IMG/VR virus record: IMGVR_UViG_3300029334_000002
Direction: 5' to 3' (one strand)
DNA from: a virus
DNA: 64,000 nucleotides
Shown here piece by piece: positions 24,009 through 52,393 of this stretch. The stretch's first letter is position 1. Every line of letters starts with the position of its first letter. The notes beneath the pieces are model-generated. The model saw nothing but the letters and a program-made list of their open reading frames with translations. It was not told the origin of the DNA and did not search any database. A program made the translations under genes and the position numbers.

Positions 24009-25303
24009 ACAGTTTCCTCCTCAATAATTTCTTGTGCCTCTTCCATATCCGGTGTATCAGAGGAATCTTTTATCAATCCTTCAAGGACCTTGAAAGTGAA
24101 ATTCTTGTGTTTATAAGCCTTAAAGCTGCTTCTATTATCAATTCTTACAACTACACCTTCTCTAACATGTGTTACTCCTATTGGATCAGGCCCATCATAG
24201 TATTTTTCTACACGCTCCATAAGATCTTCTTTAGTAGTAAACAGGAATTTATCAAATTCAGGTACATGTTTAACTCCTAAACGATCACACCAATTCTTTA
24301 CTTCTTCCCATGGAATCTCTGTAATAATCCCATCTTCATTGGTCATAGTCATTCTATAAACATAAATATCAGAAGTACCAGGAGTACACCCATAAGAGAA
24401 CACTGTTTCATCACCGTAAAGCTTCTTAACTTCTTTATCTTTAATTTTAGTGTTGGAACAGGTTCCCATAATGGTCTGCTCTGTACCATCAACCCACCCT
24501 ACGATTTCATAAAACACTTCCATTCCTTTTGGCAGTTTGTCAATAAAGTAGTCATGATATTTCTGTCTAAATTTATCATTCCCATAGTAACCGCCTTCAA
24601 ATGTATTGAGTACAACTCTTCTTGTTCCAGTAACTATTTTCCATTCTTTGATAGCAGGAGCCGGTCTACAAAAAAGTTTTTGTAGTAGAGTCTTTTTCTT
24701 AGTAGTTACTTCTATTGCATTTGCTGTTCGACCAGATGTGCCATGCATTTTCAAAGTAATGTAACAAGTATCTCCTGGTTTAAAGGCATTTAAGTTATAT
24801 GCTAACTGTTCTGTATCAGCATGTTCTTTAAAATAAGGAAATTTGTTTTTTAAATTTGGAGTTTTTACTTTCGGACCATTGTTAGATTTTTTATGATTTG
24901 ATCTTGGAATATATTTTTTACAGATAACTGTCCCATCAAGTACAGTAATTTGATCTCCTAAAGATAATTTATTTATATCAGTCCATTTACTAAGAGATTC
25001 TACTGGTAAAACCAATCCTTCTGATTTTTCACCTCGCAGTCTCATAGCTTTAATGTTTCGTTTTACAGGATCAAGATATCCACCTGTAGTTGTTCCATCT
25101 TCATTTTTAATACGCAGTAAATTGTTTTCTTTTGCAAATTCTTCTCCTAGCTGACCATCAACCGGGAAAAATACAACTTTCTGCCCTTCGTAATAACTTA
25201 AATCAACAATAACCGTATTTCCAAAAACGGTACCAAGCTGGAGCCTATCAGCATTGCTGTGTTTACGAAGTTGCTTAAGCTCAGTAATGTAAGCACAATA
25301 CAT
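24005..25303 (-). CDS. ATP-dependent RNA ligase (Rnl2-like nucleotidyltransferase) fused to an N-terminal tRNA-binding (Myf/EMAP-like) OB domain
   Basis: N-terminus KHSNADRLQLGTVFGNTVIV...VFFPVDGQL...RLRGEKSEGLVLPVESL matches the tRNA_bind domain pattern. Ligase motif I ITLKMHGTSG (KxHGT as in T4 Rnl2), motif IV/V REGVVVRIDN and FKAYKHK. Confidence 0.6.
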   Translation of the reverse strand: MYCAYITELKQLRKHSNADRLQLGTVFGNTVIVDLSYYEGQKVVFFPVDGQLGEEFAKENNLLRIKNEDGTTTGGYLDPVKRNIKAMRLRGEKSEGLVLPVESLSKWTDINKLSLGDQITVLDGTVICKKYIPRSNHKKSNNGPKVKTPNLKNKFPYFKEHADTEQLAYNLNAFKPGDTCYITLKMHGTSGRTANAIEVTTKKKTLLQKLFCRPAPAIKEWKIVTGTRRVVLNTFEGGYYGNDKFRQKYHDYFIDKLPKGMEVFYEIVGWVDGTEQTIMGTCSNTKIKDKEVKKLYGDETVFSYGCTPGTSDIYVYRMTMTNEDGIITEIPWEEVKNWCDRLGVKHVPEFDKFLFTTKEDLMERVEKYYDGPDPIGVTHVREGVVVRIDNRSSFKAYKHKNFTFKVLEGLIKDSSDTPDMEEAQEIIEEETV

Positions 25304-30576: not shown

Positions 30577-30999
30577 TTAAGTTTCATTTAATTCATCTCT
30601 CACTCTCATAAGTATCTTCCCAAGCCTATTTTCTCCAACTCCATCTACAGTTCCCCAAATAGTATCTCCCCAAGTATTACCCTCTTCCAGATGCTCGTTT
30701 CCTGTAGCAAGTAATTTTTCCTTAAGGTCTGGATTCTGAGTGAATTTAGCCAGTACAATTTCATACATTACTTTATCTTTCACTTCTTCCCAATCTGATC
30801 TCAAATCAATCTTTCTACCTGCTGCCTTTGCCTCTGATGGGCTAGCTTGAGAAAATAACTGGAATTTTAGTCTACGATTTTTTGTTTTCTGTGCTTGAAA
30901 AGCTGCTTCATTATTTGTATAGTCCCATCCGTTATAACTTACCGGTGCCATATAAAAGTTACTTAAAAAGTAATAATCTCCAGTAAAACTATTAATCAT
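30577..30999 (-). CDS. NADAR-domain protein (YbiA/DUF1768 family; N-glycosidase / ADP-ribose-processing)
   Basis: GDYYFLSNFY near the N-terminus (NADAR hallmark GxYxxLSNF), a conserved W/E pattern, about 140 aa. Confidence 0.65.
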   Translation of the reverse strand: MINSFTGDYYFLSNFYMAPVSYNGWDYTNNEAAFQAQKTKNRRLKFQLFSQASPSEAKAAGRKIDLRSDWEEVKDKVMYEIVLAKFTQNPDLKEKLLATGNEHLEEGNTWGDTIWGTVDGVGENRLGKILMRVRDELNET

Positions 31000-33597: not shown

Positions 33598-36219
33598 TTA
33601 GTTACTTCCTTTCTTACAAATTGTTTTTCTAATCCAATCTACAGGTACAACCATAAATGCTGTCACAAGGACTACAATCCACTGTTTAACATCCATTGGA
33701 GTTGTCTGTACTAGATTTCCTACAAAGTTACACAAAACTACAGCCATTGCAAAAATACCTAATGCGATATACACAAATAATTTATTATTTTTAATTCCTT
33801 TGAAAAGATTCATACTATCTGTTCTAATAGTGAATCCATTAAATACTGCCATTAAACACAATAAAGCGAATCTCGCTGTCATAGCCGAAAGTTTTGTTGC
33901 AAACATATTTCCAACTGGACCAAATGTAATTACACCAAATAAAGCAATAAATACAATTGAACTTAATGCAATTCTCCCTTTCGCTCCACGGATAAATAAT
34001 CCGGATCCTTTCATGATAGGCTCTTCATTCATATATTCCTCTTTTGGCGGTTCTCCACCAAAGCTTAATGAGTTAAGTGAATCCATGATGATATTTACAA
34101 TAAGGATCTGAACTGCTGCTAATAGAGCAGAGCCACCAGAAATAATTGGAAATACCATACTTAAGATCAACAACGAAATATTGATAGGCAGCTGGAATTC
34201 AAGGAACATCATAATGTTATGCATAAATGTTCTACCAAGTTCGACTGCCTTTACCACACTTGCAAAATTATTGTCTGTCAAAACAATATCTGCAGCTTCT
34301 TTTGCTACATCAGATCCGTCTTGCATTCCAAAGCCTACATCTGCTTTCTTTAATGCGGGAGCATCGTTCACACCGTCACCGGTCATAGCAACAGACATCC
34401 CAATTTCTTGTGCTAATGTTACAAGACGAAGCTTTGTATTTGGTGAACATCTGGAGATTACTCTTAACTGTGGAATAATTTCTTTTACTTTTACATCTGA
34501 CATTGCCTCAAACTCATCATTGGTAACTGCTAAGTCTCCAGGCTTATAAATGCCAGCTTCCATAGCAACAGCCTTAGCAGTTTCCATACAGTCACCAGTA
34601 ATTTCAATTACCTGAATTCCAGCTTTATGAGCAATTTTTACTGCTTCTGGAACTTCATTCCTAACCGGGTCAACAACTCCAATGATTCCAAGGAGATTCA
34701 TTTCATCGGGGAGACCATCATCAGTTTTATCTGAGATAGTCAATGCAATACATCTCATTGCCTTCTCTGTTAATCCCTTAATATGGCTCTTTAAAGCTTT
34801 TCTTTTTTCTTCTGTCAGCTCAGTTACAATGCCATCATTATCAAGATAAAATTTACACTTCTCAATTAATTTCTCTGGTGCGCCTTTATAAACAGTAAAA
34901 TCATTTGCTCCATTATTTAAAGTAACTGCAGAGAATTTATTTTCACTACTAAATGGAACACGTTTCTTCATGATAGCTTTATTCTGTATTTTTTGTGCGT
35001 CTTCAGGAGAAAGCATATCAAACACTGCTCGATCAATTGAATTCCCACCAGTGATATTCCCATTAGAATCAAACACTGCACTATTATTCATACAAATGTT
35101 TAAATCAATTAGCTCGTTGAGCGAACTTTCCTTATTAAAAATATCCTGACAGTTACCGTTAATCATAACTGTAGAAGTCATTTCACCTGTTGTGAGAGTT
35201 CCTGTCTTATCCGTACAAATTAAATTAACATACGCCAATTCAGGAATTTTACCAGTATTCTTCGCAAGAATATTGAATTTTTCCATTGTCGATACATTCT
35301 GTTTAGTTACAAGTTTTACAATGAGTGGCAGACCTTCCGGTACAGCCGCAACAATAATTGTCAATGCATTTGAGACATTCTGTGCTACCTTCTGAATACT
35401 TTCAAGAATACTTCCTGAGAAATACTGACTTAAGCTTCCAGCATTTAAGATACCTGTAATTGTCATAATTACAAATGCTAATGCTGCCGCAATTGTTCCC
35501 CATTTTGAAATAAAATCACACAAATGATCCAGAGCAATATCAAGAGCTGTCTTAGGAGGCTCTAAAGTCTGCATTTTGACAAGAGTATCACCATTAACTG
35601 TATTAACACCAACATCTGTAACAATCATTTTTCCTTCACCAGACATGATAACTGTTCCTGCAAAGAGAGAACACTGATCCGTATATGCAGTAGTTGATGT
35701 TGTTTTAACATGCTTATAATTAGCACTAGGAATTTTTCTACATTCTTTTGTCTCTCCATTGATAGCGGCGTTATTAACAGAAATTTCTCCATCAACAATA
35801 AATCCATCTGCAAAAATCTCTTGTCCAGTTCTCAATAGAACTAAATCACCTACTACCAGATCATCTTTATTAATTGTCTGTACGCTTCCATCTCGGACAA
35901 CATCACAATATCTAACTGCCGTTTTTGCTCTTAGCTCTGCTGCAGATTTCTGTACGCCTAGACCTGTCTTAATAGCAATTCCAGTAACAATAGCTAAAAC
36001 CACTATAATCATTACAGGTTCAGAAAGAGACATTACTCCCATAGCTCCTAAAACCAACTGAAACAAAGCAATTATTATTAGAATCATAGTAATTGGTTCA
36101 GTTAATGCCTCCTTAGCAAAATGATACCATTTCTTCAATTCAGGCTCCGGAAGCTTATTACTTCCATATGTAGTCCTACTAACCTCTACTTCGCTACTTT
36201 TTAATCCATTAAAATTCAT
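33598..36219 (-). CDS. P-type cation-transporting ATPase (type II, Ca2+/Mg2+-like)
   Basis: Phosphorylation motif DKTGTLT, hinge TGDGVNDAPALKKADVGFGM, an N-terminal cation_ATPase_N-like region and about 10 TM helices. Confidence 0.8.
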   Translation of the reverse strand: MNFNGLKSSEVEVSRTTYGSNKLPEPELKKWYHFAKEALTEPITMILIIIALFQLVLGAMGVMSLSEPVMIIVVLAIVTGIAIKTGLGVQKSAAELRAKTAVRYCDVVRDGSVQTINKDDLVVGDLVLLRTGQEIFADGFIVDGEISVNNAAINGETKECRKIPSANYKHVKTTSTTAYTDQCSLFAGTVIMSGEGKMIVTDVGVNTVNGDTLVKMQTLEPPKTALDIALDHLCDFISKWGTIAAALAFVIMTITGILNAGSLSQYFSGSILESIQKVAQNVSNALTIIVAAVPEGLPLIVKLVTKQNVSTMEKFNILAKNTGKIPELAYVNLICTDKTGTLTTGEMTSTVMINGNCQDIFNKESSLNELIDLNICMNNSAVFDSNGNITGGNSIDRAVFDMLSPEDAQKIQNKAIMKKRVPFSSENKFSAVTLNNGANDFTVYKGAPEKLIEKCKFYLDNDGIVTELTEEKRKALKSHIKGLTEKAMRCIALTISDKTDDGLPDEMNLLGIIGVVDPVRNEVPEAVKIAHKAGIQVIEITGDCMETAKAVAMEAGIYKPGDLAVTNDEFEAMSDVKVKEIIPQLRVISRCSPNTKLRLVTLAQEIGMSVAMTGDGVNDAPALKKADVGFGMQDGSDVAKEAADIVLTDNNFASVVKAVELGRTFMHNIMMFLEFQLPINISLLILSMVFPIISGGSALLAAVQILIVNIIMDSLNSLSFGGEPPKEEYMNEEPIMKGSGLFIRGAKGRIALSSIVFIALFGVITFGPVGNMFATKLSAMTARFALLCLMAVFNGFTIRTDSMNLFKGIKNNKLFVYIALGIFAMAVVLCNFVGNLVQTTPMDVKQWIVVLVTAFMVVPVDWIRKTICKKGSN

Positions 36220-36221
36220 TC

Positions 36222-37256
36222 TTAAATCTCTCCTAATACAATTCTTTCATTGACAGACATTACAAATTCTTCTATAGCTTTATAATTTGGTTTATCAGGC
36301 AATAAGGTATTCTTTGAATCATACTCAAGTCTTTTCTCTAACTCGTTTACCATTTCAAAAAATTCTGGGATAGGCTGACTGTTTGCATCCAAATATTCTC
36401 CATTACGTAGAGCCATAAGAAGCTCATGATCATCTTCTCTATATGTAATAATTTTGCCTTTTTCAAGAATATCAAAACACATAAGATACAATCTCACTAA
36501 ATGGCACATATGCTTTCCTAACTTATTATGTTCTATGGCATGCTTATTTCTCTTCCCAATTCTGGAATAATCCCTAATAATGTTTTTCATTTCGGCCCAC
36601 ATCCCCTGATAATCATTCAAAGGATAGTGCTTCAACTGGATATCCATAAATACTTCTGTTTCATAATCTTCCTGAATACCTTTATCTACATAAAGCTTTA
36701 TTGCATCTTCTGGAAAATTGAAATACTTTTCAGGGAAAGTATAAAAAGCATTCATAATACTATTAAGAACATGCTGCATTCTTTCTTCTTGTCTCAATTT
36801 CCTGGCAGCTTTATTATCAAGCCTTCTTAACTGGCTTGTAGCATAGCCTCCAAAAGAATAGATTGCTTTCTTAGATAAAAACATTTCAGCATTATCAAGA
36901 AGTTCTTGACCAATTGGATGAATATAAAGATAATGTTCTGGCTTCAATCCTATCAGCTCAATTGTGTTTGGGTTGCAGTTTGACAATAGAGTTATCAATT
37001 TATTAAAAGAATAGATTGTTGTATCTGTTGTTTCTTCCGTTACCTGATCAAAATTATGTGTAGGAATCAGGATTTCTTCTCTTTTATTTAAAGCACAACC
37101 CCTAATATCCAGATCGGAGTTTTCTGTATCTGTACCATAAGCATGAGACCCACCTAAGCCTAATAGAATTATGTTACTCCCCAGGTGCTCGTTCGCTCTT
37201 AAGAAATCATAGTGTTCACTTTTCAACAATTTTTTGATTTTCTCTATTTTCATCAA
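36222..37256 (-). CDS. Pol-beta superfamily nucleotidyltransferase
   Basis: GLGGSHAYGTDTENSDLDIRG fits the G[GS]x9-13[DE]h[DE]h minimal-NTase signature. Confidence 0.45.
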   Translation of the reverse strand: MMKIEKIKKLLKSEHYDFLRANEHLGSNIILLGLGGSHAYGTDTENSDLDIRGCALNKREEILIPTHNFDQVTEETTDTTIYSFNKLITLLSNCNPNTIELIGLKPEHYLYIHPIGQELLDNAEMFLSKKAIYSFGGYATSQLRRLDNKAARKLRQEERMQHVLNSIMNAFYTFPEKYFNFPEDAIKLYVDKGIQEDYETEVFMDIQLKHYPLNDYQGMWAEMKNIIRDYSRIGKRNKHAIEHNKLGKHMCHLVRLYLMCFDILEKGKIITYREDDHELLMALRNGEYLDANSQPIPEFFEMVNELEKRLEYDSKNTLLPDKPNYKAIEEFVMSVNERIVLGEI

Positions 37257-37743: not shown

Positions 37744-38127
37744 TCAGATAATCTGTAAGTTTTCATCACCAATAAGCCATGCAGAATTTAAAATAAAATT
37801 TTCATATGGGTCGCCACTGTCACCCCAGAACTCATCCGATCCAACTTCCCAATCGCCCAATGTTCCATCATTAAAGTTACCGTATAAATAATCTGCTGTG
37901 TGTTCTAAAAACGCATCCACAGCCTTATCATAATCTTCTTTTCTTATTGACTCTTCTACATCCGGCTCAAGATCAATCCATTTATGTTGCTCAATCAAAA
38001 AAGATTTAGCGTTATCTCTTACTTCCAACAGTGAATTTTTAATGTCTGTCAATGTTGCATCTTTCTTTTTTGCAATGATATAACTTGAAGACGAACTATT
38101 AGTAACAAATCCTCTTCTTATTTTCAT
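37744..38127 (-). CDS. Member of the KxGFVTNSSSSS(F/Y) N-terminal-motif paralog family
   Basis: Starts MKIRRGFVTNSSSSSYII; the C-terminal region is divergent and acidic. Confidence 0.45.
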   Translation of the reverse strand: MKIRRGFVTNSSSSSYIIAKKKDATLTDIKNSLLEVRDNAKSFLIEQHKWIDLEPDVEESIRKEDYDKAVDAFLEHTADYLYGNFNDGTLGDWEVGSDEFWGDSGDPYENFILNSAWLIGDENLQII

Positions 38128-38522
38128 TAACCATCTCTCCCTTCTCCTTCAGCAACTTTTATATCAGCAAATCCATTTACTTCCGTAATAGCATCTATTG
38201 CTTCATTCATAGAGAAATCATAATCATATACAGCATCACCCCATTCATCATAATAAGCATCGTTCCTGTCCTCAATTACGATATATTCTCCATCAGGGTG
38301 CTTTTCTAAAATGTCATCAACCCCATAAATGACCGCTCCGCACCAACTAGCACCAAGCTCACCAGACCAGTTTTTTTCATCATTTACACCAGTAACATCT
38401 AATACATCAAGATTGAACTGATCAATTATCTTCTGAGCTTTTTCTTTGTCAGCAATCCTTGCAAAGCAAATAATGAAACTGCTAGAGCTTGAATTAGTAA
38501 CAAATCCTTTCCGTATTTTCAT
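38127..38522 (-). CDS. Member of the KxGFVTNSSSSS(F/Y) N-terminal-motif paralog family
   Basis: Starts MKIRKGFVTNSSSSSFII; tandem with the previous paralog. Confidence 0.45.
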   Translation of the reverse strand: MKIRKGFVTNSSSSSFIICFARIADKEKAQKIIDQFNLDVLDVTGVNDEKNWSGELGASWCGAVIYGVDDILEKHPDGEYIVIEDRNDAYYDEWGDAVYDYDFSMNEAIDAITEVNGFADIKVAEGEGRDG

Positions 38523-38724: not shown

Positions 38725-39870
38725 TTACATGTCCTCCATTGAATAAATTACTTTTTCTAAGCTTCTTTTTGATTTGAAACACTTCTTAAGCAAACACCAC
38801 ATAATGGCTTTTTCAGTATCATCTTCGTCTTCCCAATCATTTAAGACTACAGAAGTCTGTGTTCCATCTTTGAACCCTACAGTAGTTCTAATTTTTCCTG
38901 TAGCAATATCTTTTGTTCTTCCTACAAATGTGATATCATCTTTCGAAAGTGTTTTACAAACCTGTTTATCAGTTTTATTTTTAGGTACAATATATACATC
39001 AATGCCTAAAGCATCTTTAATCTGGCGCTCACAGCTTCTAAGCTCTTCTCCAATAGTATGCTCTTTTTCTTTTTTCGCTACTGCTTTTTCAAGTGCTTTT
39101 AAAATCTCATCTGGTGACATATTCATATCTGTTTTCTCCTCTTTATAATTAAAATACTGCATTGGTTTCAGTTTAAACTTATTTTTTGTATGTAAACGAT
39201 CAATCCGTCTTTTAATTTCCGGATCATCGCAAATACCTGTACGAATATATCTATCTAATACTGCATAGGTAAATCCGAAGCTATCTTCATCTGATTTACC
39301 GCATAACCCATCTGATGGTGTTTTCTCTATATATTTTTTAGGTAGTCCTAAATAATAACCGATTCTTTTTACTTCACTCTTTGTGAACTGAGCCAACGGT
39401 GAAAAGTCCCCTGCTGCGTCACCATATCTAGTGGAGTATCCGATGTAATCCTCAGAAAGATTACATGTATTAACCACTCTTCCATTGTGTGACTGTGACA
39501 CCCCGTATAGAGTGGTCATTCTTAGTCTAGGAGCGAGATTAATTAATGTCTGATCTGTTACATTAAATGCAGCATCAATTTGATCAATAATATCATCATA
39601 GGCAGATCCAACATTGATAGTAAGATAATCAATCCCCAATACATGCTGGCAAATGTCATATGCCACATCAATATCATCCTGTTTATAGTTCGGCATGATT
39701 ACTCCGAGAACTTTGTCAGCTCCAACGGCTTCCACACATAGCTCAGCAGCTACTAAAGAGTCAACGCCACCGGAAATACCTACTATGAGATTACATCCAG
39801 GACCATTCTCTTCTCTCCAATCTCTAATCCACTGAATACAATCATTTGTTGCTTTTTCTACATTAAACAT
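38725..39870 (-). CDS. nadE: NadE-like PP-loop amidotransferase/synthetase (NAD+ synthetase family) with a C-terminal extension
   Basis: PP-loop LIVGISGGVDSLVAAEL followed by VLGVIMPN, the NadE-type arrangement. 381 aa, against about 275 aa for typical NadE. Confidence 0.55.
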   Translation of the reverse strand: MFNVEKATNDCIQWIRDWREENGPGCNLIVGISGGVDSLVAAELCVEAVGADKVLGVIMPNYKQDDIDVAYDICQHVLGIDYLTINVGSAYDDIIDQIDAAFNVTDQTLINLAPRLRMTTLYGVSQSHNGRVVNTCNLSEDYIGYSTRYGDAAGDFSPLAQFTKSEVKRIGYYLGLPKKYIEKTPSDGLCGKSDEDSFGFTYAVLDRYIRTGICDDPEIKRRIDRLHTKNKFKLKPMQYFNYKEEKTDMNMSPDEILKALEKAVAKKEKEHTIGEELRSCERQIKDALGIDVYIVPKNKTDKQVCKTLSKDDITFVGRTKDIATGKIRTTVGFKDGTQTSVVLNDWEDEDDTEKAIMWCLLKKCFKSKRSLEKVIYSMEDM

Positions 39871-40405
39871 TCTGCTCCTCCAATTTCCACAGTTCTACTT
39901 CAAAACTACTTAATTCTTCTTCTATAATCTTATAAACCACTTCCCAGTCTGCTCCTCCTCTTCCGCAGCCTATTTTATATGGGAGTGCAATGGTTGTCTT
40001 GTGAGGTCTGTTATCAGCATCAAACCAATAAACAGGTATTTGTTGTCGAATAAAATTTAATCCTTCTCGAAAAGCTTTAACATCAGTATACTGTTTTCCA
40101 TCATATCCATACTTGTCTTGTGCAAATAAGGACAATATCTCTTGATTTTTCCTTCTGATAAAGTACTCGTCATATGTTCCAAGAAGTAATTCTGGATTAA
40201 ATTCACGTAATTTACAAACGTTTCTATAATGTATATAAATACCTTCGTCATAATCTCTTAATGCTTTAGCAACTCCAGTATTCATTTCTCCTTGGCAATT
40301 AACTTGATGAATTATATAATCGGTCTGTGCATCTACAATGTTACCTTCAATAATTTTAATCATAAATCTTTTCCTATAAATCCTGAAATGTAAACTTCTC
40401 GCCAC
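39863..40405 (-). CDS. Macro-domain protein (ADP-ribose binding / hydrolase)
   Basis: IIEGNIVDAQTDYIIHQVNCQGEMNTGVAKALRD matches the macro-domain N-terminal signature (GDIT...DAIVNAAN...GGGVA). Confidence 0.6.
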   Translation of the reverse strand: MARSLHFRIYRKRFMIKIIEGNIVDAQTDYIIHQVNCQGEMNTGVAKALRDYDEGIYIHYRNVCKLREFNPELLLGTYDEYFIRRKNQEILSLFAQDKYGYDGKQYTDVKAFREGLNFIRQQIPVYWFDADNRPHKTTIALPYKIGCGRGGADWEVVYKIIEEELSSFEVELWKLEEQNV

Positions 40406-40775
40406 AGGAGCAAATCACTTCTCCAATAGTTCCGATTGATGTTGGTGTAAAGCACCATGTAAGAGAGCCGCCTATGCAACCATGTCCCATTGCTCTCTGT
40501 TCCATAGTTTTCAAACCATGTTTCTCAGCATCATGTTTTAATTCCCACTCTCTGATTTTCTCTTGTTCTTTTTCTGAAATTGGAAATCCTCTATACAGAT
40601 CCTCTTTTGCTTCTTTTAACTCGGTTGCCATTCTCTGCATTTCTGAATCTTTATAATGCTCATCTTTGAGTTTTTTATTTTCTTCTTCCAGATACTCAAT
40701 ACGTCTCTCTTTGTCAACTGTCTTGTCAATAATTCCTTGACAAAGATCTGAGATTGATGCGTTAAAAAAATTCAT
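40374..40775 (-). CDS. Hypothetical protein
   Basis: ORF only. Confidence 0.3.
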   Translation of the reverse strand: MNFFNASISDLCQGIIDKTVDKERRIEYLEEENKKLKDEHYKDSEMQRMATELKEAKEDLYRGFPISEKEQEKIREWELKHDAEKHGLKTMEQRAMGHGCIGGSLTWCFTPTSIGTIGEVICSCGEKFTFQDL

Positions 40776-42242
40776 TTAATTCCCTCCATTTAGTCTATTC
40801 CTGATCTTTTTGAATGTTTCTACATAACACATTTCACCATCTTTAAATACAGTTTTTAATGCCCCATCATAAACAAAGCTGTCATATCCATCTCTGCACC
40901 TTAATTCTCCATTTTCATCGTAATATACATGACAACATCCTTTATGAGATTTCTTTAAATGGCTTACATCTGTCTTTGGATCTTTGTAAATCATAATCGG
41001 TTGTCCGTTAACTTCTCCAAATGTAGCTTTCATAGCAATGCCGAACATATCTCTGGTTACAACGACCATACGTCCATCAGGTTCTACAACTGCCGAGAAA
41101 CAAAAAGCCCCAACTCCAAATACAATGTTGTTTGCAGCGAATCCTTTCTTCTCAAGTTCTTCCCATACCTTTTTTACATTGTTAAGAGTACAGCCATCAC
41201 CATAGATAATTCCAATATGAGGGTCCAGTACTTTGTAACCTTTGCTATTTACTGATCCTTCAAATGTATTCCAGAGTTTTTCGATAGTCTTAACTGAAAT
41301 CTCTACCATATCACCAGAATCCGGACGAACCAAGAGCTTACCATTGTGCTGCATAATTTCTTTTTTGCAAGCTGGAAGAATATTGTCAATCATGTTCCAG
41401 TAATCATATGTATCAGATACCATGCTGAAAGATGCATTCGGATATAATTCTGTAAGTAGTCTTTTCACAAATGTAATTTCGTCTCCGTCCACAGCATAAT
41501 TTGAAGCCATGACCGCATGTTCGGTAGAAATCGCACCAATTCCAATATGACTCACGCTACAGTCATTGAAATAATATTTGTCCAAATAATCAATTGCCGG
41601 GATCGTACTTGTCTTATCAAAGGATAATAGCCAAGCAACGGAGCATCTCTCTGCTTCTTCCATACAGGACATTCCACGCATTCCAAAGTCTGAGCAGGCC
41701 ATTTCAGGTCTTAAAATGTCGTCGCAGGTCTTTTTATAGTAGAAATTTGCCAGTTCTCTGTACATATGTCCAATTGTTGCATGAGCACACGGCTTCCAAA
41801 GCTCAACCTGCAGAATACACTCAATCCACTGCACAACCCATGCAAAATCTGGATGTGTATTCGTGATTTCAATGCATGGCACTCCCATAGGCACTAATGT
41901 ACCTTCCGGTAATGCACGGATCTGAATCGGAAGATACCCTAATTCGTGAAGTTTAAGGATTGGAGAAATATCGTAATTTCCTTCTCCTAACTGAATGTCC
42001 ATACTAATTGTATAAAGTTCTTGAACTTCATCAGTGCTTAATTTAAAGAAATCTCTTTTAAAATATGTAATAAGATATTCTTTAATAAAAGCCTGCAGTC
42101 CGAAGAAAACCATATGATCCTGCTCCTTTAACATTGATCTTCTCGGAGTCCAATAAGAGACTAACTTCGTCAATCCTCTCGGAAACATATTGTGGTGTAC
42201 TTGTTTGTAAGTATCGCTTAACAGAATTGCTAAGGTATCCAT
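40776..42242 (-). CDS. nadV: Nicotinamide phosphoribosyltransferase-like (NadV/NAMPT family; possibly a Namat-type ADPR-PP:nicotinamide transferase)
   Basis: N-terminus LLSDTYKQVHHNMFP matches the NAMPT start (TDSYKVTHYKQYP); about 490 aa, typical for the family. Confidence 0.7.
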   Translation of the reverse strand: MDTLAILLSDTYKQVHHNMFPRGLTKLVSYWTPRRSMLKEQDHMVFFGLQAFIKEYLITYFKRDFFKLSTDEVQELYTISMDIQLGEGNYDISPILKLHELGYLPIQIRALPEGTLVPMGVPCIEITNTHPDFAWVVQWIECILQVELWKPCAHATIGHMYRELANFYYKKTCDDILRPEMACSDFGMRGMSCMEEAERCSVAWLLSFDKTSTIPAIDYLDKYYFNDCSVSHIGIGAISTEHAVMASNYAVDGDEITFVKRLLTELYPNASFSMVSDTYDYWNMIDNILPACKKEIMQHNGKLLVRPDSGDMVEISVKTIEKLWNTFEGSVNSKGYKVLDPHIGIIYGDGCTLNNVKKVWEELEKKGFAANNIVFGVGAFCFSAVVEPDGRMVVVTRDMFGIAMKATFGEVNGQPIMIYKDPKTDVSHLKKSHKGCCHVYYDENGELRCRDGYDSFVYDGALKTVFKDGEMCYVETFKKIRNRLNGGN

Positions 42243-42610
42243 TATTTTTTATCCTCCTCTTTGTCATTTACAATTTTATCAATCTGATCTGTGATATAAT
42301 CAACTACATCTTTACCAGTTTTGCCAATTGTTTGAATATTATCTGGTGTGATTTCATTTACAACTGCCATCGTATATATTGTTTCTGTATTAGGTGTCAT
42401 GATTGTAATGATAGTCATTACAACACATCCGATAATTAATTTGCTAATAGTTTTTCTAAACTTAAATGGTTCGTTATATCCGGTTAATCCAGCAAATAAA
42501 GCACACATAGCAATAACTCCGCATATTCCTGCGATCATTCCAAAAAATGTTGTTAAATTATCTGCTCTACTAGCAGAATAAATCAACCAAGGACTAATAA
42601 TCGGTTTCAT
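42242..42610 (-). CDS. Small membrane protein
   Basis: Several hydrophobic helices. Confidence 0.35.
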   Translation of the reverse strand: MKPIISPWLIYSASRADNLTTFFGMIAGICGVIAMCALFAGLTGYNEPFKFRKTISKLIIGCVVMTIITIMTPNTETIYTMAVVNEITPDNIQTIGKTGKDVVDYITDQIDKIVNDKEEDKK

Positions 42611-42623
42611 ATTTTTATCTCCC

Positions 42624-43013
42624 TTATAACTTTCCTATCAAACAGCCCCAAGTAAAAGCAATCTGAAACATATGAGTTATCTGATCTTGAATTAAATTAA
42701 TTTTCTTTTTATTGGCTTTCATATCATCTACTAACATATGTATCAATAAATTCATAACCAATAATAAAGGATTCCATTTACCGCCAATAATCATAAGCGC
42801 AATTGTTGGTGGTAACATAATCATAAATGACCAACTAAAGCTATGCATAAACAACGCTGCTAAATAATCATATTTATATAATTTTCCTGGTGAATTCTTT
42901 TCCCACCATGATTTTTGTTTTGCAGATGCCAACCATCCTTGTAAATAATAATCATCTACAATGTGGCAGAAAATCATTGTAAATAATATAAATATTTTAT
43001 ATGCGATATTCAT
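42624..43013 (-). CDS. Small membrane protein
   Basis: Hydrophobic helices. Confidence 0.35.
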   Translation of the reverse strand: MNIAYKIFILFTMIFCHIVDDYYLQGWLASAKQKSWWEKNSPGKLYKYDYLAALFMHSFSWSFMIMLPPTIALMIIGGKWNPLLLVMNLLIHMLVDDMKANKKKINLIQDQITHMFQIAFTWGCLIGKL

Positions 43014-43816
43014 TATCTAAACCTCTCAACAAGTTCAATCTTAGGACTTTCCAGATTTGTCAAGATCGTATCTGTCGTATAAATCTTCTCAATCAATCCA
43101 TTATTTTTCAGAAGTTCTCCTTCATAAATAGTATTCTCACAATGAGTAATATAAAGATAAATCTTACCTACACCGGCCTCTTTCAGCTTTTTAGCACTAT
43201 AATAAAAAGTACCACCTCTGCTGCAAATGTCATCTACAATAAGAATGTCTTTACCTGGTAATTGATCAATTTCACCAGATAAATCTAAACCTTTAATCTC
43301 TCCGGTCTCCCAATCTCTATTCTTAATACCGAAAGCATATGGAAGATGTACTGCTGAAGAATATCGCTTCATGGATCCCGCATCCGGATAAAACATCATA
43401 AGGTTATTACTCGCAATCTTCTTAACAGCATCCTCAATCATTCGATTCGGGGATTCTACATGTACTTTATTAAATAATGCGGCAGATACATCAGAATGCG
43501 GATCTAAAACTTCTACTTTTCCAAAATGTAATGAATTAATAGTCTGAGCAAAATATTTTAAAGTAAATAATTCGTTCTCATGCTTGACTCGATCCATACG
43601 TGCATCTGGGATATAAGGCATATATAAATTAGGCACTACTCTATGATCCCAACAATATCTAGTAATATATTCAACTGCTGTTAATTCTTCCATTGATTCA
43701 AAGAACCATTCAATATTATCTCTACACCATCCTCCGATAGGTGGGATATTCTTAAATAAGAATGTCCCATCCGGATATTTATCAAGTTTGATTTCTACAC
43801 CGTTTAATTTAATCAT
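43013..43816 (-). CDS. Ribose-phosphate pyrophosphokinase-like (Prs family; possibly an Adps-type ADP-ribose pyrophosphokinase)
   Basis: LYMPYIPDARMDR (Prs PYxxYARQDR), LDPHSDV, and the PRPP-binding loop LIVDDICSRGGT. The N-terminus is shorter than in canonical Prs. Confidence 0.65.
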   Translation of the reverse strand: MIKLNGVEIKLDKYPDGTFLFKNIPPIGGWCRDNIEWFFESMEELTAVEYITRYCWDHRVVPNLYMPYIPDARMDRVKHENELFTLKYFAQTINSLHFGKVEVLDPHSDVSAALFNKVHVESPNRMIEDAVKKIASNNLMMFYPDAGSMKRYSSAVHLPYAFGIKNRDWETGEIKGLDLSGEIDQLPGKDILIVDDICSRGGTFYYSAKKLKEAGVGKIYLYITHCENTIYEGELLKNNGLIEKIYTTDTILTNLESPKIELVERFR

Positions 43817-43869
43817 TCCAAATCTCCTTATAATCTATTTCTTACTGTTTAATAATCCTTACTTAACTT

Positions 43870-44331
43870 TTACTTATGCTCAATATCACAGGTAGTTATT
43901 ACAGACGGATTATTCAAATGATTGCCATTACAGAAATTATTGATAAAATCCACCTGTCTTTGGAGATAATCAATAGAATCACATAGTGAAACTTTTACAT
44001 AACTTAATAATTCTGCGACAATTGTACTAATCTTAAACAGTTCATTTTCTTTATCATCGTATTCAACGCCATCTGCATGATTAAACGGTGAGGTTGCGTC
44101 AGCTGTTTTTATATAAAAATCATTATCCTCATTTTTATAAATTGAGCACACCCAAATAGTATCGTCATAAAGCCCATCAAACTCAAATACTTGTAAGGTT
44201 TCTGTATTGTTTTTTTCAACAAGTTTTGTAGTGATCACTCCATCACAGTCATATTTACGTAAGTAGTTCTGAATATCCTCTAATGTAATTTCTTCTAATT
44301 TCTTCATTTCCACAGTATTTTCTCCTACCAT
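43870..44331 (-). CDS. Hypothetical acidic protein
   Basis: ORF only. Confidence 0.3.
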   Translation of the reverse strand: MVGENTVEMKKLEEITLEDIQNYLRKYDCDGVITTKLVEKNNTETLQVFEFDGLYDDTIWVCSIYKNEDNDFYIKTADATSPFNHADGVEYDDKENELFKISTIVAELLSYVKVSLCDSIDYLQRQVDFINNFCNGNHLNNPSVITTCDIEHK

Positions 44332-44332
44332 C

Positions 44333-44881
44333 TTATTTCTCTCCTATCACATTAATCTGGCAACTTTTCATCACTTCTAAAGCTGCTTTATGCTTCTCCG
44401 GTGAAGTCCCGGCACAGCATGACGCATCAACTGTAATTTCTATATCCGGATAATGTGTTTTTAATACTAATGCATTAGTTACTACACAGATATCTGTGCA
44501 TACACCAATAATTTCAACATCATAACAACATATCCAATGGCTTATATTCCATCTATATCCAAAAGTATTTTTAGGATAAATCTTTTCCATTGTTGAAAGT
44601 TCAACATTTAATTCTGGAATAATTTCATAGCCAGAAGTTCCTACAATACAATGTGACACTGGAAGTTTTTTGCCTTCTGGTGTTTCCAAATAATCATCGT
44701 AATGAGTATCAGTTGTAAAAATAATCACATCATCTCTTGATCTATATTCTTCCACTTTTTTCACTATATTCGGTACAACTGCCTGAGCTTCCGGTGTACC
44801 TAGCGAACCTGTCACAAAATCATTCTGAACATCAATAACAATCAAAATTTTCTTTTTATTTTCCACAAGTACTACCTCCAA
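44333..44881 (-). CDS. pncA: Isochorismatase-family hydrolase, nicotinamidase (PncA)-like
   Basis: ILIVIDVQNDFVTGSLG and SHCIVGTSGYEII (catalytic Cys), following the PncA pattern. Confidence 0.6.
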   Translation of the reverse strand: MEVVLVENKKKILIVIDVQNDFVTGSLGTPEAQAVVPNIVKKVEEYRSRDDVIIFTTDTHYDDYLETPEGKKLPVSHCIVGTSGYEIIPELNVELSTMEKIYPKNTFGYRWNISHWICCYDVEIIGVCTDICVVTNALVLKTHYPDIEITVDASCCAGTSPEKHKAALEVMKSCQINVIGEK

Positions 44882-45479: not shown

Positions 45480-45561
45480 TCCACCCAGAGAGACTCGAAC
45501 TCTCACGCTATTAAGCATTAGAACCTAAATCTAACGTGTCTGCCAATTCCACCATGGGTGG
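45480..45561 (-). tRNA. tRNA-Leu (anticodon TAG), type II with a long variable arm
   Basis: Manual fold: acceptor CCACCCA/TGGGTGG, anticodon stem TTAGA/TCTAA with loop TTTAGGT, a 15-nt variable arm, T-arm GAGAG-TTCGAGT-CTCTC. Confidence 0.7.
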
Positions 45562-46756: not shown

Positions 46757-46981
46757 CTTTTCATGCATGACCTGTCATGCTGCAGTCACAACAGGATTAT
46801 GTGTTCTTTGATCAGCTCAATTCCCTACATTTTCTCTAAAGCTGAATGTTTGTCTCATTACAAAACATCTCAAAAACTATCTGTCTTTCCAGCGCCATCT
46901 GATTCTCACTACCAAATCAGCAACGGCTCTTTACTATTGAAAATTAGAGCTCTCAAAAGTCACTCCTTCGTCAGGAGAAGT

Positions 46982-47055
46982 GGAAACTCTGGGACTCGAA
47001 CCCAGGACCGACCGGTTATGAGCCGGTTGCTCTAACCAACTGAGCTAAGTTTCCA
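46982..47055 (-). tRNA. tRNA-Met/Ile2 (anticodon CAT)
   Basis: Acceptor GGAAACT/AGTTTCC, D-arm GCTC-AGTTGGTTA-GAGC, anticodon stem ACCGG/CCGGT with loop CTCATAA, T-arm CTGGG-TTCGAGT-CCCAG. Confidence 0.7.
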
Positions 47056-47421: not shown

Positions 47422-47494
47422 ACGGGGTAGATGGGATTCGAACCCATGAATGCAGCAGTCAAAGTGCTGTGCCTTACCGCTTGGCCACTACCCT
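47422..47494 (-). tRNA. tRNA-Gln (anticodon TTG)
   Basis: Acceptor AGGGTAG/CTACCCC with an A1-C72 mismatch, 3-bp D-stem GCC/GGC, anticodon stem CAGCA/TGCTG with loop CTTTGAC, T-arm ATGGG-TTCGAAT-CCCAT. Confidence 0.6.
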
Positions 47495-48672: not shown

Positions 48673-49605
48673 TCAATGCCCTTTAACATCTGCTTCATGT
48701 AATAACATCACATCTGAAAACATCTGTTTTCCAATTAAATACTTATCTTTATTCTTTGCCTTGTTTGATTGCGACCATGATAAATAGGGATGCATATGAT
48801 AATAAATCAAATTTGCTGTATAAAAAGCATCATATATATCTTTTCCTGTAAGTGCACCGGAAAAATCAAAACATGTTAAACATTCATAAGCTCCAACACA
48901 ATGATGCTGATAATAGTGACAGTAATCATCCTCTTCACCTTTTCCATTAATTCTTGATTTAGTGAAAAGCTTTCCAATATCATGGAGACAGGCCGCCACC
49001 CATAAATTTTTTTCTTCTCTAGGTACTCCTTCTGAAACCTTTTTCAAATGTTCATAAAGAGTAAGAGAATGATGTGGATTCTCTTGATCGAAGTCACGAG
49101 CCATATCTATTAATTCTTTTATATCTTTATGATCATCTTGTACAACTCTAATTTCATTGAACCCTTCATGGTACATTGGTGGAGAAAATACTTTCCTCAT
49201 TCTTGTAATCACTTCGTCTGGAACTGAATTTTCCCTTTTTGAGTTATCCTTTAAACATTTTTCATACGTTTTCAAAAACATAATACATGTTTTATAAACA
49301 TGTTTATGAACTCCTTTTAAAAAATGCACTCTTCTTTTCTTTACCAAATTAGTAGCATCATAAATAACCGAATGCATTTTCAAATCTTCCAGTATTCTAC
49401 GATGCAGTTCTTCAAATACTTTACTGTTGTCTGCGTCATCATAATTATCTCCATACATTTCTTCTCTGAGTTTATCAGAAGAGTGCACTATATAATCAGG
49501 ATGAGTTTCTGAATACTCTTTAGCCCATGTACTTTTACCGGAAGCAGGTAAACCTACCAGCATAATTAATTCATTCATTATGTAATCTCCTCTATTTCTT
49601 TGCAA
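48673..49605 (-). CDS. Polynucleotide-kinase-like P-loop kinase fused to an HD phosphohydrolase domain (putative 5'-kinase/3'-phosphatase for RNA repair)
   Basis: N-terminal MLVGLPASGKSTWAKEY resembles the T4 Pnk kinase P-loop (GCPGSGKSTWAREF). C-terminal ACLHDIGK is an HD motif. Confidence 0.55.
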   Translation of the reverse strand: MQRNRGDYIMNELIMLVGLPASGKSTWAKEYSETHPDYIVHSSDKLREEMYGDNYDDADNSKVFEELHRRILEDLKMHSVIYDATNLVKKRRVHFLKGVHKHVYKTCIMFLKTYEKCLKDNSKRENSVPDEVITRMRKVFSPPMYHEGFNEIRVVQDDHKDIKELIDMARDFDQENPHHSLTLYEHLKKVSEGVPREEKNLWVAACLHDIGKLFTKSRINGKGEEDDYCHYYQHHCVGAYECLTCFDFSGALTGKDIYDAFYTANLIYYHMHPYLSWSQSNKAKNKDKYLIGKQMFSDVMLLHEADVKGH

Positions 49606-50328: not shown

Positions 50329-50382
50329 AAGTATACCATAGTCATTCTACCTTGTCAACACTTTTTTTTACAAACTTGTTTA
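50329..50382 (-). promoter_or_regulatory. Second tandem promoter (TTGACA, 17 nt, TATACT) preceded by the same AAACAAGTTTGTAAAAAAAA element
   Basis: -35 at 50352-50357 and -10 at 50329-50334 on the minus strand. It lies within the last codons of ligA. Confidence 0.4.
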
Positions 50383-52393
50383 AAAATTCTTTTTCTGAAA
50401 TTATCGGGATACCAAGCTGCATAGCTTTCACATTCTTGCTACTCTTTGACAATGTATCATTATTAATAAGGTAGTTAGTTTTTTTAGTTACTGATCCTGT
50501 GACTTTACCTCCAAGAGACTCTATTTTCTCTACTAGAGCTGCTCTATTGGCAAACTCGGTGAGTGTCCCAGTAATACAGAATATTGCCCCATTCAAAACA
50601 TCTTTTACCGTCTCCTGAGAAATTTCTTCAAACTGGAATTCCGCAGCAAGCTCAGTTATGTATCTTTGATTTTCTTCAAAATAATTTTTCAAAGAAGAAG
50701 CTTTCGCAAAACCAAAGTCTTCCAAACATGTAAAATCATACTGAGAATCCATATCTTTAATAAAGCTATCAAAAGCTGTTTTTAACCCTTTTTCTCTTGC
50801 TCTCTTCTCTTCAACAATGTTTAGCTGCTTACTAACACTTCGACCGATTAAAGGTATGGACAGCCCATAAAGGAATTTAGGCAGAGTTGTCTTGCGGCAT
50901 TTTTCTATTGATTCCAGGATTTTATCAACCTTTTTTGCTCCTAGCCCTTGTAATGTCACTAACATTCCCCGGCAGTCTTTTAGATAAAATAAGTCTAAAG
51001 GCCCTTTAATAAATTCTTTCTCTATTAATAGACTCAGAGTAGATTTAGAAAGCCCTGTAATATCATGTGCTTCTTTGCTTACAAAAGTACATAATTCACC
51101 AAGAAGTTTCCCTTTACATTCAAGGTTCATGCACTGAAGCTCTTCTGTCTCATTTTCACCTGTAATTTTTACATGACCACCACAAATAGGGCACTTGTCA
51201 GGCACAGTAAACAATTTGTCACCGTTTCTGGTCAAATTCTCTGCGATCTGCGGAATGATCATGTTTGCCTTATATACCGTAATCGTATCTCCTACTGACA
51301 GTTCATAACTTTTGAAAATACTCACATTATGTAAGCTAGCTCTTTCAACAATAGTATCATCTATTTCAACCGGATCAAAAACTGCCACAGGTGTCAACTG
51401 TCCAGTCTTTCCCATGCTCCATTCCACATCTCTAATTACTGTTTCAAACTTATCATCTGCAAATTTATATGCCAATTGTGATCGAACATGATGTGATGTG
51501 TTTCCTAAGCTTTCACTATAATCAATATCATCATATGAAAATACGATTCCATCAATAGGAACATCTTTTTCTCTTGCGGTTTTTCTAAGTTCTTTAATAT
51601 TCTCTTCAATATTATCAACTTTTACCCAAGGGACCACTTCAAATCCTAACAGATCTAATATCTGTAATCTTTTCATGAAACTATTTCCATCTATTCCACG
51701 AACGGCCTTCCAAGCAATGAACTTGATTTTTCTTTCTTTTGTAACGGAGTTATCAAGCTGTCTAACAGAGCCAGCAGTTAAATTTCTGATATTCTTAATA
51801 CCATTATCTTTAATATATTTTTCTAATTCTTCACCAAAAAGTCCCTTTCTTTCTCCATCTTTTTTCAGATCAATATCTTTTAGCTCTTTAAGATAAGTAT
51901 AATGATGGATTTCCATGACAGCTTCTCCATCAACTACTACTTCATCTTTATAAGGAATTTCCTTTGGAAGATTTACAAAACTGTTTGCTGTATGTAAAAC
52001 ATTCTCTCCGATGATTCCATTCCCTCTAGTTTCTGCAGCAACCAATTTACCATCTATATATTTTACTGAAATAGTAAGCCCATCCATTTTTAGCATGGCT
52101 AATCCTGGCAAACCATTCATAAAACTTTCAACTTCATTTATATCCTTTGTTTTGTCTAAGGACAACATTGGATGATCATGTTCGACTTTTTCTAACTCAC
52201 TAACTGTTTCTGAGCCAACATTGATAGTGGGACTGTTGGCTAAAATAATACCTGTAACTTTCTCAAGTTCTTTAAGTCGATCATATTTTTTATCATATTC
52301 ATAATCAGAAATTAGAGAAGTATCTTCCATATAATACGCATGAGCATATATATTTAATTCTTCCACTAATTCACGCATTTCTTTTAAAAGCAC
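50342..52393 (-). CDS. ligA: NAD+-dependent DNA ligase LigA
   Basis: Adenylation motif LKMDGLTISVKY (KxDG), OB and zinc-finger regions (CPICGG), HhH repeats and a C-terminal BRCT domain (GAIFCITGTL...). Confidence 0.85.
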   Translation of the reverse strand: MLLKEMRELVEELNIYAHAYYMEDTSLISDYEYDKKYDRLKELEKVTGIILANSPTINVGSETVSELEKVEHDHPMLSLDKTKDINEVESFMNGLPGLAMLKMDGLTISVKYIDGKLVAAETRGNGIIGENVLHTANSFVNLPKEIPYKDEVVVDGEAVMEIHHYTYLKELKDIDLKKDGERKGLFGEELEKYIKDNGIKNIRNLTAGSVRQLDNSVTKERKIKFIAWKAVRGIDGNSFMKRLQILDLLGFEVVPWVKVDNIEENIKELRKTAREKDVPIDGIVFSYDDIDYSESLGNTSHHVRSQLAYKFADDKFETVIRDVEWSMGKTGQLTPVAVFDPVEIDDTIVERASLHNVSIFKSYELSVGDTITVYKANMIIPQIAENLTRNGDKLFTVPDKCPICGGHVKITGENETEELQCMNLECKGKLLGELCTFVSKEAHDITGLSKSTLSLLIEKEFIKGPLDLFYLKDCRGMLVTLQGLGAKKVDKILESIEKCRKTTLPKFLYGLSIPLIGRSVSKQLNIVEEKRAREKGLKTAFDSFIKDMDSQYDFTCLEDFGFAKASSLKNYFEENQRYITELAAEFQFEEISQETVKDVLNGAIFCITGTLTEFANRAALVEKIESLGGKVTGSVTKKTNYLINNDTLSKSSKNVKAMQLGIPIISEKEFLNKFVKKSVDKVE

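Follow-up and report, generated by a model that had tools for sequence, protein, structure and literature searches.

Which route to NAD+ does a phage take that encodes, besides a Prs-like kinase and a NAMPT-family phosphoribosyltransferase (PRTase), also a nicotinamidase-like protein, a NadE-like NAD synthetase and a macro-domain protein? This question is raised by a gene cluster at positions 38725-44881 of a viral DNA stretch of 64,000 nucleotides (IMG/VR record IMGVR_UViG_3300029334_000002; the whole stretch is called the window in the following). Depletion of NAD+ is among the commonest antiphage strategies of bacteria, and NARP1 to NARP3 are known phage answers to it. An original prediction for this region had related the cluster either to NadV plus Prs salvage or to NARP1, in which the kinase Adps and the transferase Namat rebuild NAD+ with nicotinamide, and had added that the additional genes might make it a fuller pathway or a variant one. 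The latter idea is borne out by our comparisons, as we consider it reasonably probable that the operon is a deamidated variant of NARP1, a reading in which we infer every substrate and product.

The proposed pathway and its genes

All five NAD+-related genes were found where they had been predicted, and the five family assignments hold in Pfam, PHROG, NCBIfam and PDB matches:

38725..39870, minus strand, NadE-like protein, 381 aa (PF02540, TIGR00552)
39863..40405, minus strand, macro-like, putatively Adpp-like protein, 180 aa with GTG as start or 166 aa with the ATG at 40363
40776..42242, minus strand, NAMPT-family PRTase, candidate variant Namat, 488 aa
43013..43816, minus strand, Prs-like protein, putative Adps-like ADP-ribose pyrophosphokinase, 267 aa
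44333..44881, minus strand, isochorismatase/PncA-like nicotinamidase candidate, 182 aa, TTG start

The setting of the proposed mechanism would be a host NADase defence that breaks NAD+ down into ADP-ribose (ADPR) plus nicotinamide. The phage PncA would convert nicotinamide to nicotinate, and Adps would use ATP to turn ADPR into its pyrophosphate (ADPR-PP) with release of AMP. A variant Namat with a carboxylate-adapted pocket would then join nicotinate and ADPR-PP to nicotinic acid adenine dinucleotide (NaAD) and pyrophosphate, and an NH3-dependent NadE would complete NAD+ from NaAD, ATP and NH3. As a feeder step, the macro protein would act like Adpp and convert ADPR-1''-phosphate to ADPR. Because the adenylate is ready-made in ADP-ribose, such a route would need no adenylyltransferase for nicotinic acid mononucleotide (NaMN). 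Such a mechanism accounts for all four conserved genes as well as for the macro gene as an accessory, for the absence of an adenylyltransferase and for the remodelled pocket of the transferase. With slightly more belief than doubt, we also take the operon to represent a widespread class in gut phages, which would carry out the new reaction nicotinate + ADPR-PP -> NaAD in a self-contained four-enzyme pathway with neither a mononucleotide intermediate nor an adenylyltransferase. A literature search, whose coverage excluded most subscription journals, returned neither a NARP4 or NARP5 nor any phage pathway that connects ADPR-PP with nicotinate or with NaAD; in the papers on NARP1, NARP1-AP, RyDEP, NARP3 and the Namat structures, PncA, NadE and nicotinate do not come up in such a connection.

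The nicotinamide pocket of the transferase

The best PDB sequence match of the transferase is 9w5x/9w5w (1e-109), the crystal structures of Namat from SPβL1, which is the model phage for NARP1 (bioRxiv 10.1101/2024.02.11.579819); human NAMPT is matched at 1e-54. The protein contains PF04095 and PF18127, belongs to phrog_448 (7e-161), and its AlphaFold2 (AF2) model, with a predicted local distance difference test score (pLDDT) of 94.9, again has 9w5x as top fold match at a template modelling (TM) score of 0.93 and a root-mean-square deviation of 1.4-1.8 Å. The NF006629 match (459.6, cut-off 405) denotes membership at superfamily level only. Overall similarity to Namat versus NadV was considered as a decisive measure and rejected: the NadV of H. 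ducreyi is itself 568 bits from SPβL1 Namat, so that only clamp and pocket residues discriminate.

All ligand contacts listed for SPβL1 Namat (PMC12774641) were mapped onto the window protein. D13, Y15, F189, R192, the catalytic H245, R306, D308, G360, D361, G390, F392, T398, R399 and D400 are retained, and with respect to the ligand these retained contacts cover the ribose, the phosphate, the AMP-phosphate and most of the adenine. The nicotinamide pocket is changed at three positions, where G213, D215 and A242 of SPβL1 are replaced by K210, S212 and S239. A further change concerns the adenine/selectivity clamp, in which R40 is Met and Y396 is Ala, followed by a 10-aa insertion that AF2 models confidently as a β-hairpin (strands 384-386 and 392-394).

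D215 of SPβL1 Namat forms a hydrogen bond with nicotinamide in a pocket that is also lined by A242, and a D215A exchange lowers nicotinamide-dependent NAD+ synthesis 8-fold (PMC12774641). Two reports on human NAMPT, both citing Khan et al. 2006, describe Asp219 as a determinant of substrate specificity, with D219S said to be an exchange that "switches the substrate affinity" and D219A abolishing activity (PMC7096376; PMC4919578). Judged by position, D219 should be the counterpart of D215 in SPβL1. Khan and co-workers reportedly observed in 2006 that D219S lets human NAMPT use nicotinic acid. The loss of a negative charge together with the gain of Ser and Lys/Asn is what would be expected for the binding of a carboxylate. 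Since the amide-bonding Asp is Ser, two more pocket positions co-vary with it and these changes are linked to PncA and NadE (see below), the PRTase of the window is probably not a nicotinamide enzyme. NARP1 had been one of two options in the original prediction; Namat is indeed the best match of the protein, and the use of nicotinamide that came with this option is the part that probably has to be given up.

Pocket variants across the Namat family

All of the 120 closest database homologs (68-98% identity) have the pocket motif "KTSTIP" and the insertion. To cover the whole family, we used 150 cluster representatives from an exhaustive HMMER search, among which 92 combine Asp with a short canonical clamp, 43 combine Ala, Ser or Val with an insertion, and 11 pair a short clamp with Ser or Ala. 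The combination of Asp and an insertion occurs in five representatives, three of which have insertions of ~290 residues that are taken to be inteins. The Namat homologs P0182, P0189 and P0226 are interrupted by such intein-like insertions of ~290 residues precisely within the clamp motif (GS[FY]C…SHNTYQ[MY][NV]TRD), and tblastn matches in two pieces are also seen for many phage Namat genes.

A second set was obtained by merging the HMMER representatives with the locus-derived sequences and thinning them at 65% identity (n=150). In this set, positions 215 and 242 change together: D or E goes with A in 101 sequences and A, S or V with S in 48, with a single sequence that departs from this pattern. 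At position 213, Gly is found in 97 of 99 Asp-type sequences, and the remaining sequences have K, N, S, P, A or R there. A crude neighbour-joining tree places 46 of the 49 non-Asp representatives in one clade without any Asp-type sequence, and Phass-1, P0138 and P0235 branch at the base of the Asp clade. The Namat of Phass-1 has Ala215 and Ser242, yet a fully canonical clamp, GIGAYTYQYVTRD. As Phass-1 combines Ala215 and this canonical clamp with PncA and NadE, the linkage to both enzymes tracks the pocket change and not the hairpin. A scan with an alignment of non-Asp sequences with canonical clamp gave no close viral relatives, so Phass-1 is the only member of this subgroup with genomic context.

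Gene neighbourhoods

The gene neighbourhoods were compared in ~380 loci from IMG/VR, which were collected with the window protein and with alignments of Ala-type, Asp-type and "short-clamp non-Asp" sequences as queries, and annotated by jackhmmer seeded with the window proteins. Counting each distinct Namat sequence once and demanding at least 5 kb of flank on both sides, 201 loci were left, with the following numbers of loci containing each gene:

Ser/Ala-type Namat, n=139: PncA 138, NadE 136, Adps 139, macro 93
Asp/Glu-type Namat, n=62: PncA 0, NadE 0, Adps 61, macro 13

The corresponding Fisher p values, in which relatedness of the sequences is not corrected for, are ~1e-51 for PncA and ~1e-48 for NadE. 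Three orders of the core genes occur, namely PncA-Adps-Namat-(Macro)-NadE, Adps-Namat-Macro-NadE-PncA and PncA-Namat-NadE-Adps, and in the tightest locus the four core genes are contiguous within 3.5 kb. Precomputed Pfam annotations of 238-261-kb contigs show the same order of genes, as Isochorismatase, Pribosyltran (weak), NAMPT_N/NAPRTase and NAD_synthase. In INPHARED, a Namat/Nampt homolog is found in 2,043 records, a NadE-like protein in 43 and a PncA-like protein in only 11; the PncA-like matches are mainly unannotated contigs from human faeces, plus Phage Phass-1 with its compact operon nicotinamidase-Prs-NAMPT-hypothetical-NadE. The original prediction described the kinase and the PRTase as joined by the PncA-like and NadE-like enzymes. 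Because the pocket variant is linked to both of these enzymes (138/139 and 136/139 loci), we read them as the candidate first and last steps of a nicotinate-routed pathway and not as add-ons to a nicotinamide pathway.

The module is mosaic in many relatives (L004-L065), which are 97-99% identical to the window in Adps, 83% in Namat, 57% in PncA and 56% in NadE, and others show 72% identity in Namat and 42% in Adps. This suggests that recombination between the module genes is frequent. A cluster PncA-Adps-Namat (Ala-type) is also present on a 6.9-kb contig (L391) that was binned with a Methanomassiliicoccaceae metagenome-assembled genome (MAG), for which a binning artefact or an archaeal virus are both possible.

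The Prs-like protein and the ribosyl donor

The view that sequence alone cannot tell NARP1 from classical salvage turned out to be too pessimistic. When the Prs-like and the NAMPT-like protein are compared with characterised enzymes, as had been proposed, the latter has 9w5x as best sequence and fold match and the former sides with Adps: it is 41.9% identical to SPβL1 Adps over 258 of its 267 aa (169 bits) and scores 116 bits against ICP1 Adps and 59.7 bits against E. coli Prs. It belongs to phrog_619 (2e-67), stays under the cut-off of TIGR01251 (88.8, cut-off 113) and far under those of ten other NCBIfam Prs models, and has no match to Pribosyltran_N and a score of 24.8 against PF14572 (cut-off 27). 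The residues K185, R87, H121, D161, D212, D213, I214 and C215 of ICP1 Adps are retained; in the aromatic lid, F221 is F and F223 is Y. The position of ICP1 D216 is Ser, as it is in SalinJah Adps according to the alignment and, as suggested by eye, in SPβL1 Adps. Besides, the protein has the Adps-type hairpin K-x-R-D-x-x-T-G-x-I, the H-S-D-V motif and a DDIC PP loop, and it lacks ~20 N-terminal residues of Prs as well as the C-terminal regulatory α11-α12 region. These features fit the structures of ICP1 Adps, in which K185 is part of a catalytic hairpin, the PP loop is remodelled and the C-terminal α11-α12 module is lost (PMC13586617). SPβL1 Adps makes ADPR-PP and gave no measurable product in the intended control for Prs activity (bioRxiv 10.1101/2024.02.11.579819). 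By sequence, the Prs-like protein is a member of the Adps clade and not a phosphoribosyl pyrophosphate (PRPP) synthetase, and its predicted activity is that of an ADPR pyrophosphokinase.

As for the transferase, SPβL1 Namat also accepts PRPP, and a R40A/F392G double mutant is crippled in the use of ADPR-PP (PMC12774641). Among the 49 non-Asp representatives, 48 have an aromatic residue at the equivalent of the adenine-stacking F392 and 41 have Arg at position 40, whereas the PRPP-using NadV of H. ducreyi has Gln at position 392 and Arg at position 396. The retained clamp residues support ADPR-PP as the likely donor.

PncA, NadE, macro protein and the missing adenylyltransferase

The PncA-like protein matches PF00857 (1.2e-25), with the pyrazinamidase/nicotinamidase of P. 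horikoshii (1ilw) as best PDB match (2.2e-13). Its Asp, Lys and Cys align with D10, K94 and C133 of 1ilw and its Asp, His and His with D52, H54 and H71, which we take to be the catalytic triad and the metal site, respectively. As it misses the cut-off of the NCBIfam PncA equivalog model (30 vs 174), it is a divergent member of the family. The NadE-like protein matches PF02540 over residues 10-235 (3.7e-48) and TIGR00552 clearly above the cut-off (162.5 vs 63.65), and it has a SGGVDS P-loop and no CN-hydrolase domain; its best PDB matches are all NH3-dependent NAD synthetases. The C-terminal extension that had been noticed in this protein is real, comprises ~140 aa (38725-39140) and has no family match. 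It is found in a minority of the relatives, NadE elsewhere being usually 240-280 aa long, and may be a fused small gene.

The macro-like protein has no Pfam match. It is related to phrog_335 "phosphatase" (7e-37) and to the DarG macro model (5e-13), with weak matches to macro domains in PDB, and is 30.9% identical over 165 aa (E 1e-25) to the "phosphatase" encoded between Adps and Namat of Vibrio phage K406. The K406 operon has the same architecture, Adps-phosphatase-Namat, as the validated NARP1-AP operon of Vibrio phage Gary, in which Adpp turns ADPR-1''-phosphate into ADPR and thereby defeats aRES (bioRxiv 10.64898/2026.01.28.702374). Through its homology to the K406 protein, the macro-like protein resembles Adpp, and the macro domain noted in the cluster fits this published extension of NARP1. 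Such a macro phosphatase is sensible only with ADPR as a substrate.

An adenylyltransferase is missing from the 64-kb window insofar as it contains no (H/T)xGH motif and no tblastn match to NadD or PncB of phage G. Among ~175 variant loci, a single one has an open reading frame (ORF) with (H/T)xGH within 8 kb. A 343-aa nucleotidyltransferase at 36222-37253 was considered as a substitute for NadD and rejected, since it is of the RlaP/Polβ type and lies in an RNA-repair context. Bacillus phage G encodes the textbook Preiss-Handler set of PncA, a PncB-type enzyme, NadD and NadE, and has no Prs-like gene.

Alternative pathways

Several points weigh against a deamidated variant of NARP1. In the window's clade, R40 is replaced by Met and Y396 by Ala, and the hairpin modelled at that spot could complete the adenine site or block it. 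The variant might also make NaMN, additionally or instead, by analogy to SPβL1 Namat with its ability to use PRPP. The D219S precedent comes from a human enzyme that uses PRPP and applies here through a match of D219 to D215 that we infer. As the non-Asp sequences are essentially one clade (46/49), the co-occurrence counts reflect few independent events. Finally, the nicotinate route is longer and costlier in ATP, and the reason why a phage should prefer it is a matter of speculation only: a nicotinamidase of the Clostridial host might rapidly deplete nicotinamide, the ATP-driven NadE step might exert a thermodynamic pull, or NaAD might be the poorer NADase substrate.

The same genes could instead boost the Preiss-Handler pathway, which we regard as unlikely. 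The Prs-like protein would then make PRPP, the PRTase would form NaMN from nicotinate and PRPP, the NadD of the host would adenylylate it and the phage NadE would finish the synthesis. PncA and NadE are indeed the first and last enzymes of that pathway, and host supply of NadD is possible because this enzyme is universal in bacteria; phage G, which does build the pathway, nevertheless brings its own NadD and PncB-type enzyme. The pocket changes speak for nicotinate only and not for a given ribosyl donor, and SPβL1 Namat retains activity with PRPP (PMC12774641), but the Prs-like protein groups with the validated Adps enzymes and misses the Prs cut-offs. In the clamp, the hairpin and the loss of Y396 and, in the window's clade, of R40 could mean that adenine recognition is lost; on the other hand, the aromatic residue at 392 (48/49) and Arg at 40 (41/49) persist in the variant representatives, unlike in true NadV, and Phass-1 pairs Ala215 with a canonical clamp. 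A macro phosphatase producing ADPR, found in 93 of 139 loci, would be left without a role.

It is quite improbable, in our judgement, that the operon encodes an ordinary NARP1 or NARP1-AP pathway on nicotinamide, with PncA and NadE as independent auxiliary metabolic genes that happen to share its anti-defence island. On its own, the set of Adps, Namat and macro protein is a published and sufficient pathway, relatives have an anti-defence hot spot in this region with Gad2 close by, and PncA and NadE could push host salvage or remove nicotinamide; a co-encoded nicotinamidase would, however, destroy the substrate of its own pathway. A hydrogen bond to the amide is still possible with Ser, although D215A cuts the nicotinamide activity of Namat 8-fold (PMC12774641) and D219A abolishes that of NAMPT (PMC4919578). 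Moreover, three pocket positions co-vary with the presence of PncA and NadE, and this linkage persists over three gene orders and divergence to ~40%. NadE-family enzymes that prefer NaMN exist (Francisella NadE), and since the sequence data leave the substrate of NadE unassigned, a route via nicotinamide mononucleotide (NMN) can be conceived, in which the PRTase makes NaMN, a Francisella-type NadE ("NMN synthetase") converts it to NMN and a host adenylyltransferase completes NAD+. We hold this to be very improbable, because both the use of PRPP and an unusual specificity of NadE would have to be assumed without support, the host adenylyltransferase would still be required, and Adps and the macro phosphatase would be left unexplained.

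Comparison with known systems and implications

With NARP1 (Osterman et al., bioRxiv 10.1101/2024.02.11.579819; PMC12774641; PMC13586617), the operon shares an Adps-clade kinase adjoining a transferase of the Namat fold, the catalytic His of this transferase together with its contacts to ribose, phosphate and AMP-phosphate, a SPβ-like phage backbone as in SPβL1, and the presumed purpose of restoring NAD+ after the action of NADase defences. It differs in the pocket, where S, S and K replace D215, A242 and G213, in the clamp, with a β-hairpin in place of Y396 and, in the window's clade, Met for R40, in the presence of PncA and NadE, of which neither occurs in any of the 62 canonical loci, and in the predicted transferase product, which is NaAD and not NAD+. 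A Poa1p/DarG-like macro protein is a likeness to NARP1-AP (bioRxiv 10.64898/2026.01.28.702374), our comparison having been made with the K406 "phosphatase". Unlike in NARP1-AP, the macro gene of the window follows Namat with a 133-aa ORF in between and accompanies an enzyme of the putative nicotinate type; in our sample, macro genes are found in 93/139 variant versus 13/62 canonical loci.

The Preiss-Handler pathway PncA-PncB-NadD-NadE of Bacillus phage G likewise opens with the deamidation of nicotinamide and closes with NadE acting on the deamido dinucleotide. In contrast, the window has Adps and a Namat-fold enzyme in place of a PncB-type enzyme and NadD, and the adenylate would derive from ADP-ribose and not from ATP. 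With NARP2 (NadV/Nampt plus Nmnat, Vibrio phage KVP40) and H. ducreyi NadV (9ke8), the transferase shares the fold at 37% identity, but it has no Nmnat partner in the window, has lost the specificity Asp and carries an aromatic residue at 392 where NadV has Gln.

If the proposed pathway is true, the operon would add a new enzyme activity, a nicotinate ADP-ribose transferase, and a new metabolic logic by which ADP-ribose enters NAD+ synthesis at the level of NaAD. It would also provide a sequence rule for the Namat pocket, G-x-D…A versus [K/N]-x-[S/A]…S, and call for re-annotation of many loci now listed as "NAMPT + Prs" or automatically as NARP1, mainly in large phages and prophages of human-gut Clostridia.

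Genomic context

Besides the five NAD+ genes, the region and its surroundings contain the following features:

40374..40775, minus strand, 133-aa ORF with coiled-coil N-terminus and Cys-rich C-terminus, candidate accessory
42242..42610, minus strand, 122-aa membrane protein (phrog_3878, 3.6e-13)
42624..43013, minus strand, small DUF3307 membrane protein, 129 aa (PF11750, 1.7e-05; phrog_2470, 5e-14)
43870..44331, minus strand, 153-aa ORF, variable insert outside the core set
50342-52378, NAD-dependent DNA ligase

Between 38725 and 44881 the genes run head-to-tail on the minus strand, where neighbours either overlap by 1-8 nt or are no more than 54 nt apart, and the five NAD+ genes are translationally coupled. 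A scan of the region for promoters and terminators gave no excess over shuffles, so that the operon structure is defined by gene spacing only. As the gene set recurs in >200 related loci, its clustering is not due to chance. Namat and Adps share a strand and are separated by 770 bp, a stretch that contains two small ORFs (42242-43013). Of these, the 122-aa protein has hydrophobic segments at residues 18-36 and 53-71 and recurs between Adps and Namat in the window's clade, and the DUF3307 protein, in which hydrophobic segments were also found, is restricted to close relatives; a link of these two small membrane proteins to pyridine uptake is a question only. In 84 related loci, the 133-aa ORF is conserved at its place after Namat and before the macro gene; it has no family match, its sole signal being a sub-threshold match to the XRCC4 coiled coil. 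The 153-aa ORF has no Pfam, PHROG or NCBIfam match and homologs in only 15 related loci. The ligase, which had been noted as a nearby NAD+-dependent enzyme, implies that the phage has a direct need for the NAD+ pool.

The PolC-like polymerase of the window shares 48% identity with YorL of SPβ-type Bacillus phages, among them SPβL1, and judged by such sequence relations the window represents the part of a large SPβ-like phage that carries its replication and auxiliary genes. An identical copy of the Namat gene is present in a 124-kb IMG/VR contig, and its relatives are found in viral contigs of 100-180 kb. Megablast of the region against 50,697 phage records gave a single match of 413 nt and no close cultured relative. 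A copy of the module with 76% identity lies within a 499-kb contig of Ruminococcus sp. AM36-2AA, and further copies occur in MAGs of Lachnospiraceae and Acutalibacteraceae, so the hosts are most likely gut Clostridia.

In 238-261-kb contigs, the anti-Gabija gene Gad2 is located a few kb upstream of the module (924-1361 in L394, 2572-3801 in L395), which gives the module anti-defence surroundings; in SPβL1, the same arm of the genome likewise contains Gad1. A NADAR-domain protein (30577-30999, minus strand; PF08719, 1.5e-29; phrog_1017) is another gene related to NAD or ADP-ribose, ~8 kb from the module. An RNA-repair-like set on the minus strand, consisting of the RlaP/Polβ-type nucleotidyltransferase (36222-37253), a kinase-HD fusion (48673-49578) and an RNA ligase (24005-25303), suggests that the phage counters defences which cleave tRNA or RNA. 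Three minus-strand tRNA genes (45480-45561, 46980-47054 and 47423-47494), for Leu (tag), Met (cat) and Gln (ttg), are located shortly upstream of the module, and the Phass-1 module is likewise flanked by tRNAs. The window also encodes a P-type cation-transporting ATPase of 873 aa (33598-36219, minus strand) with E1-E2 ATPase, Cation_ATPase_C and Cation_ATPase_N domains. Four paralogous small proteins on the minus strand (37744-38127, 38127-38522, 61105-61581 and 61569-61835) share the N-terminus MK(I/L)R(K/R/I)GFVTNSSSSS(F/Y); the first three of them were covered by a PHROG scan and gave weak matches to phrog_7397, and two of the four lie directly downstream of NadE.

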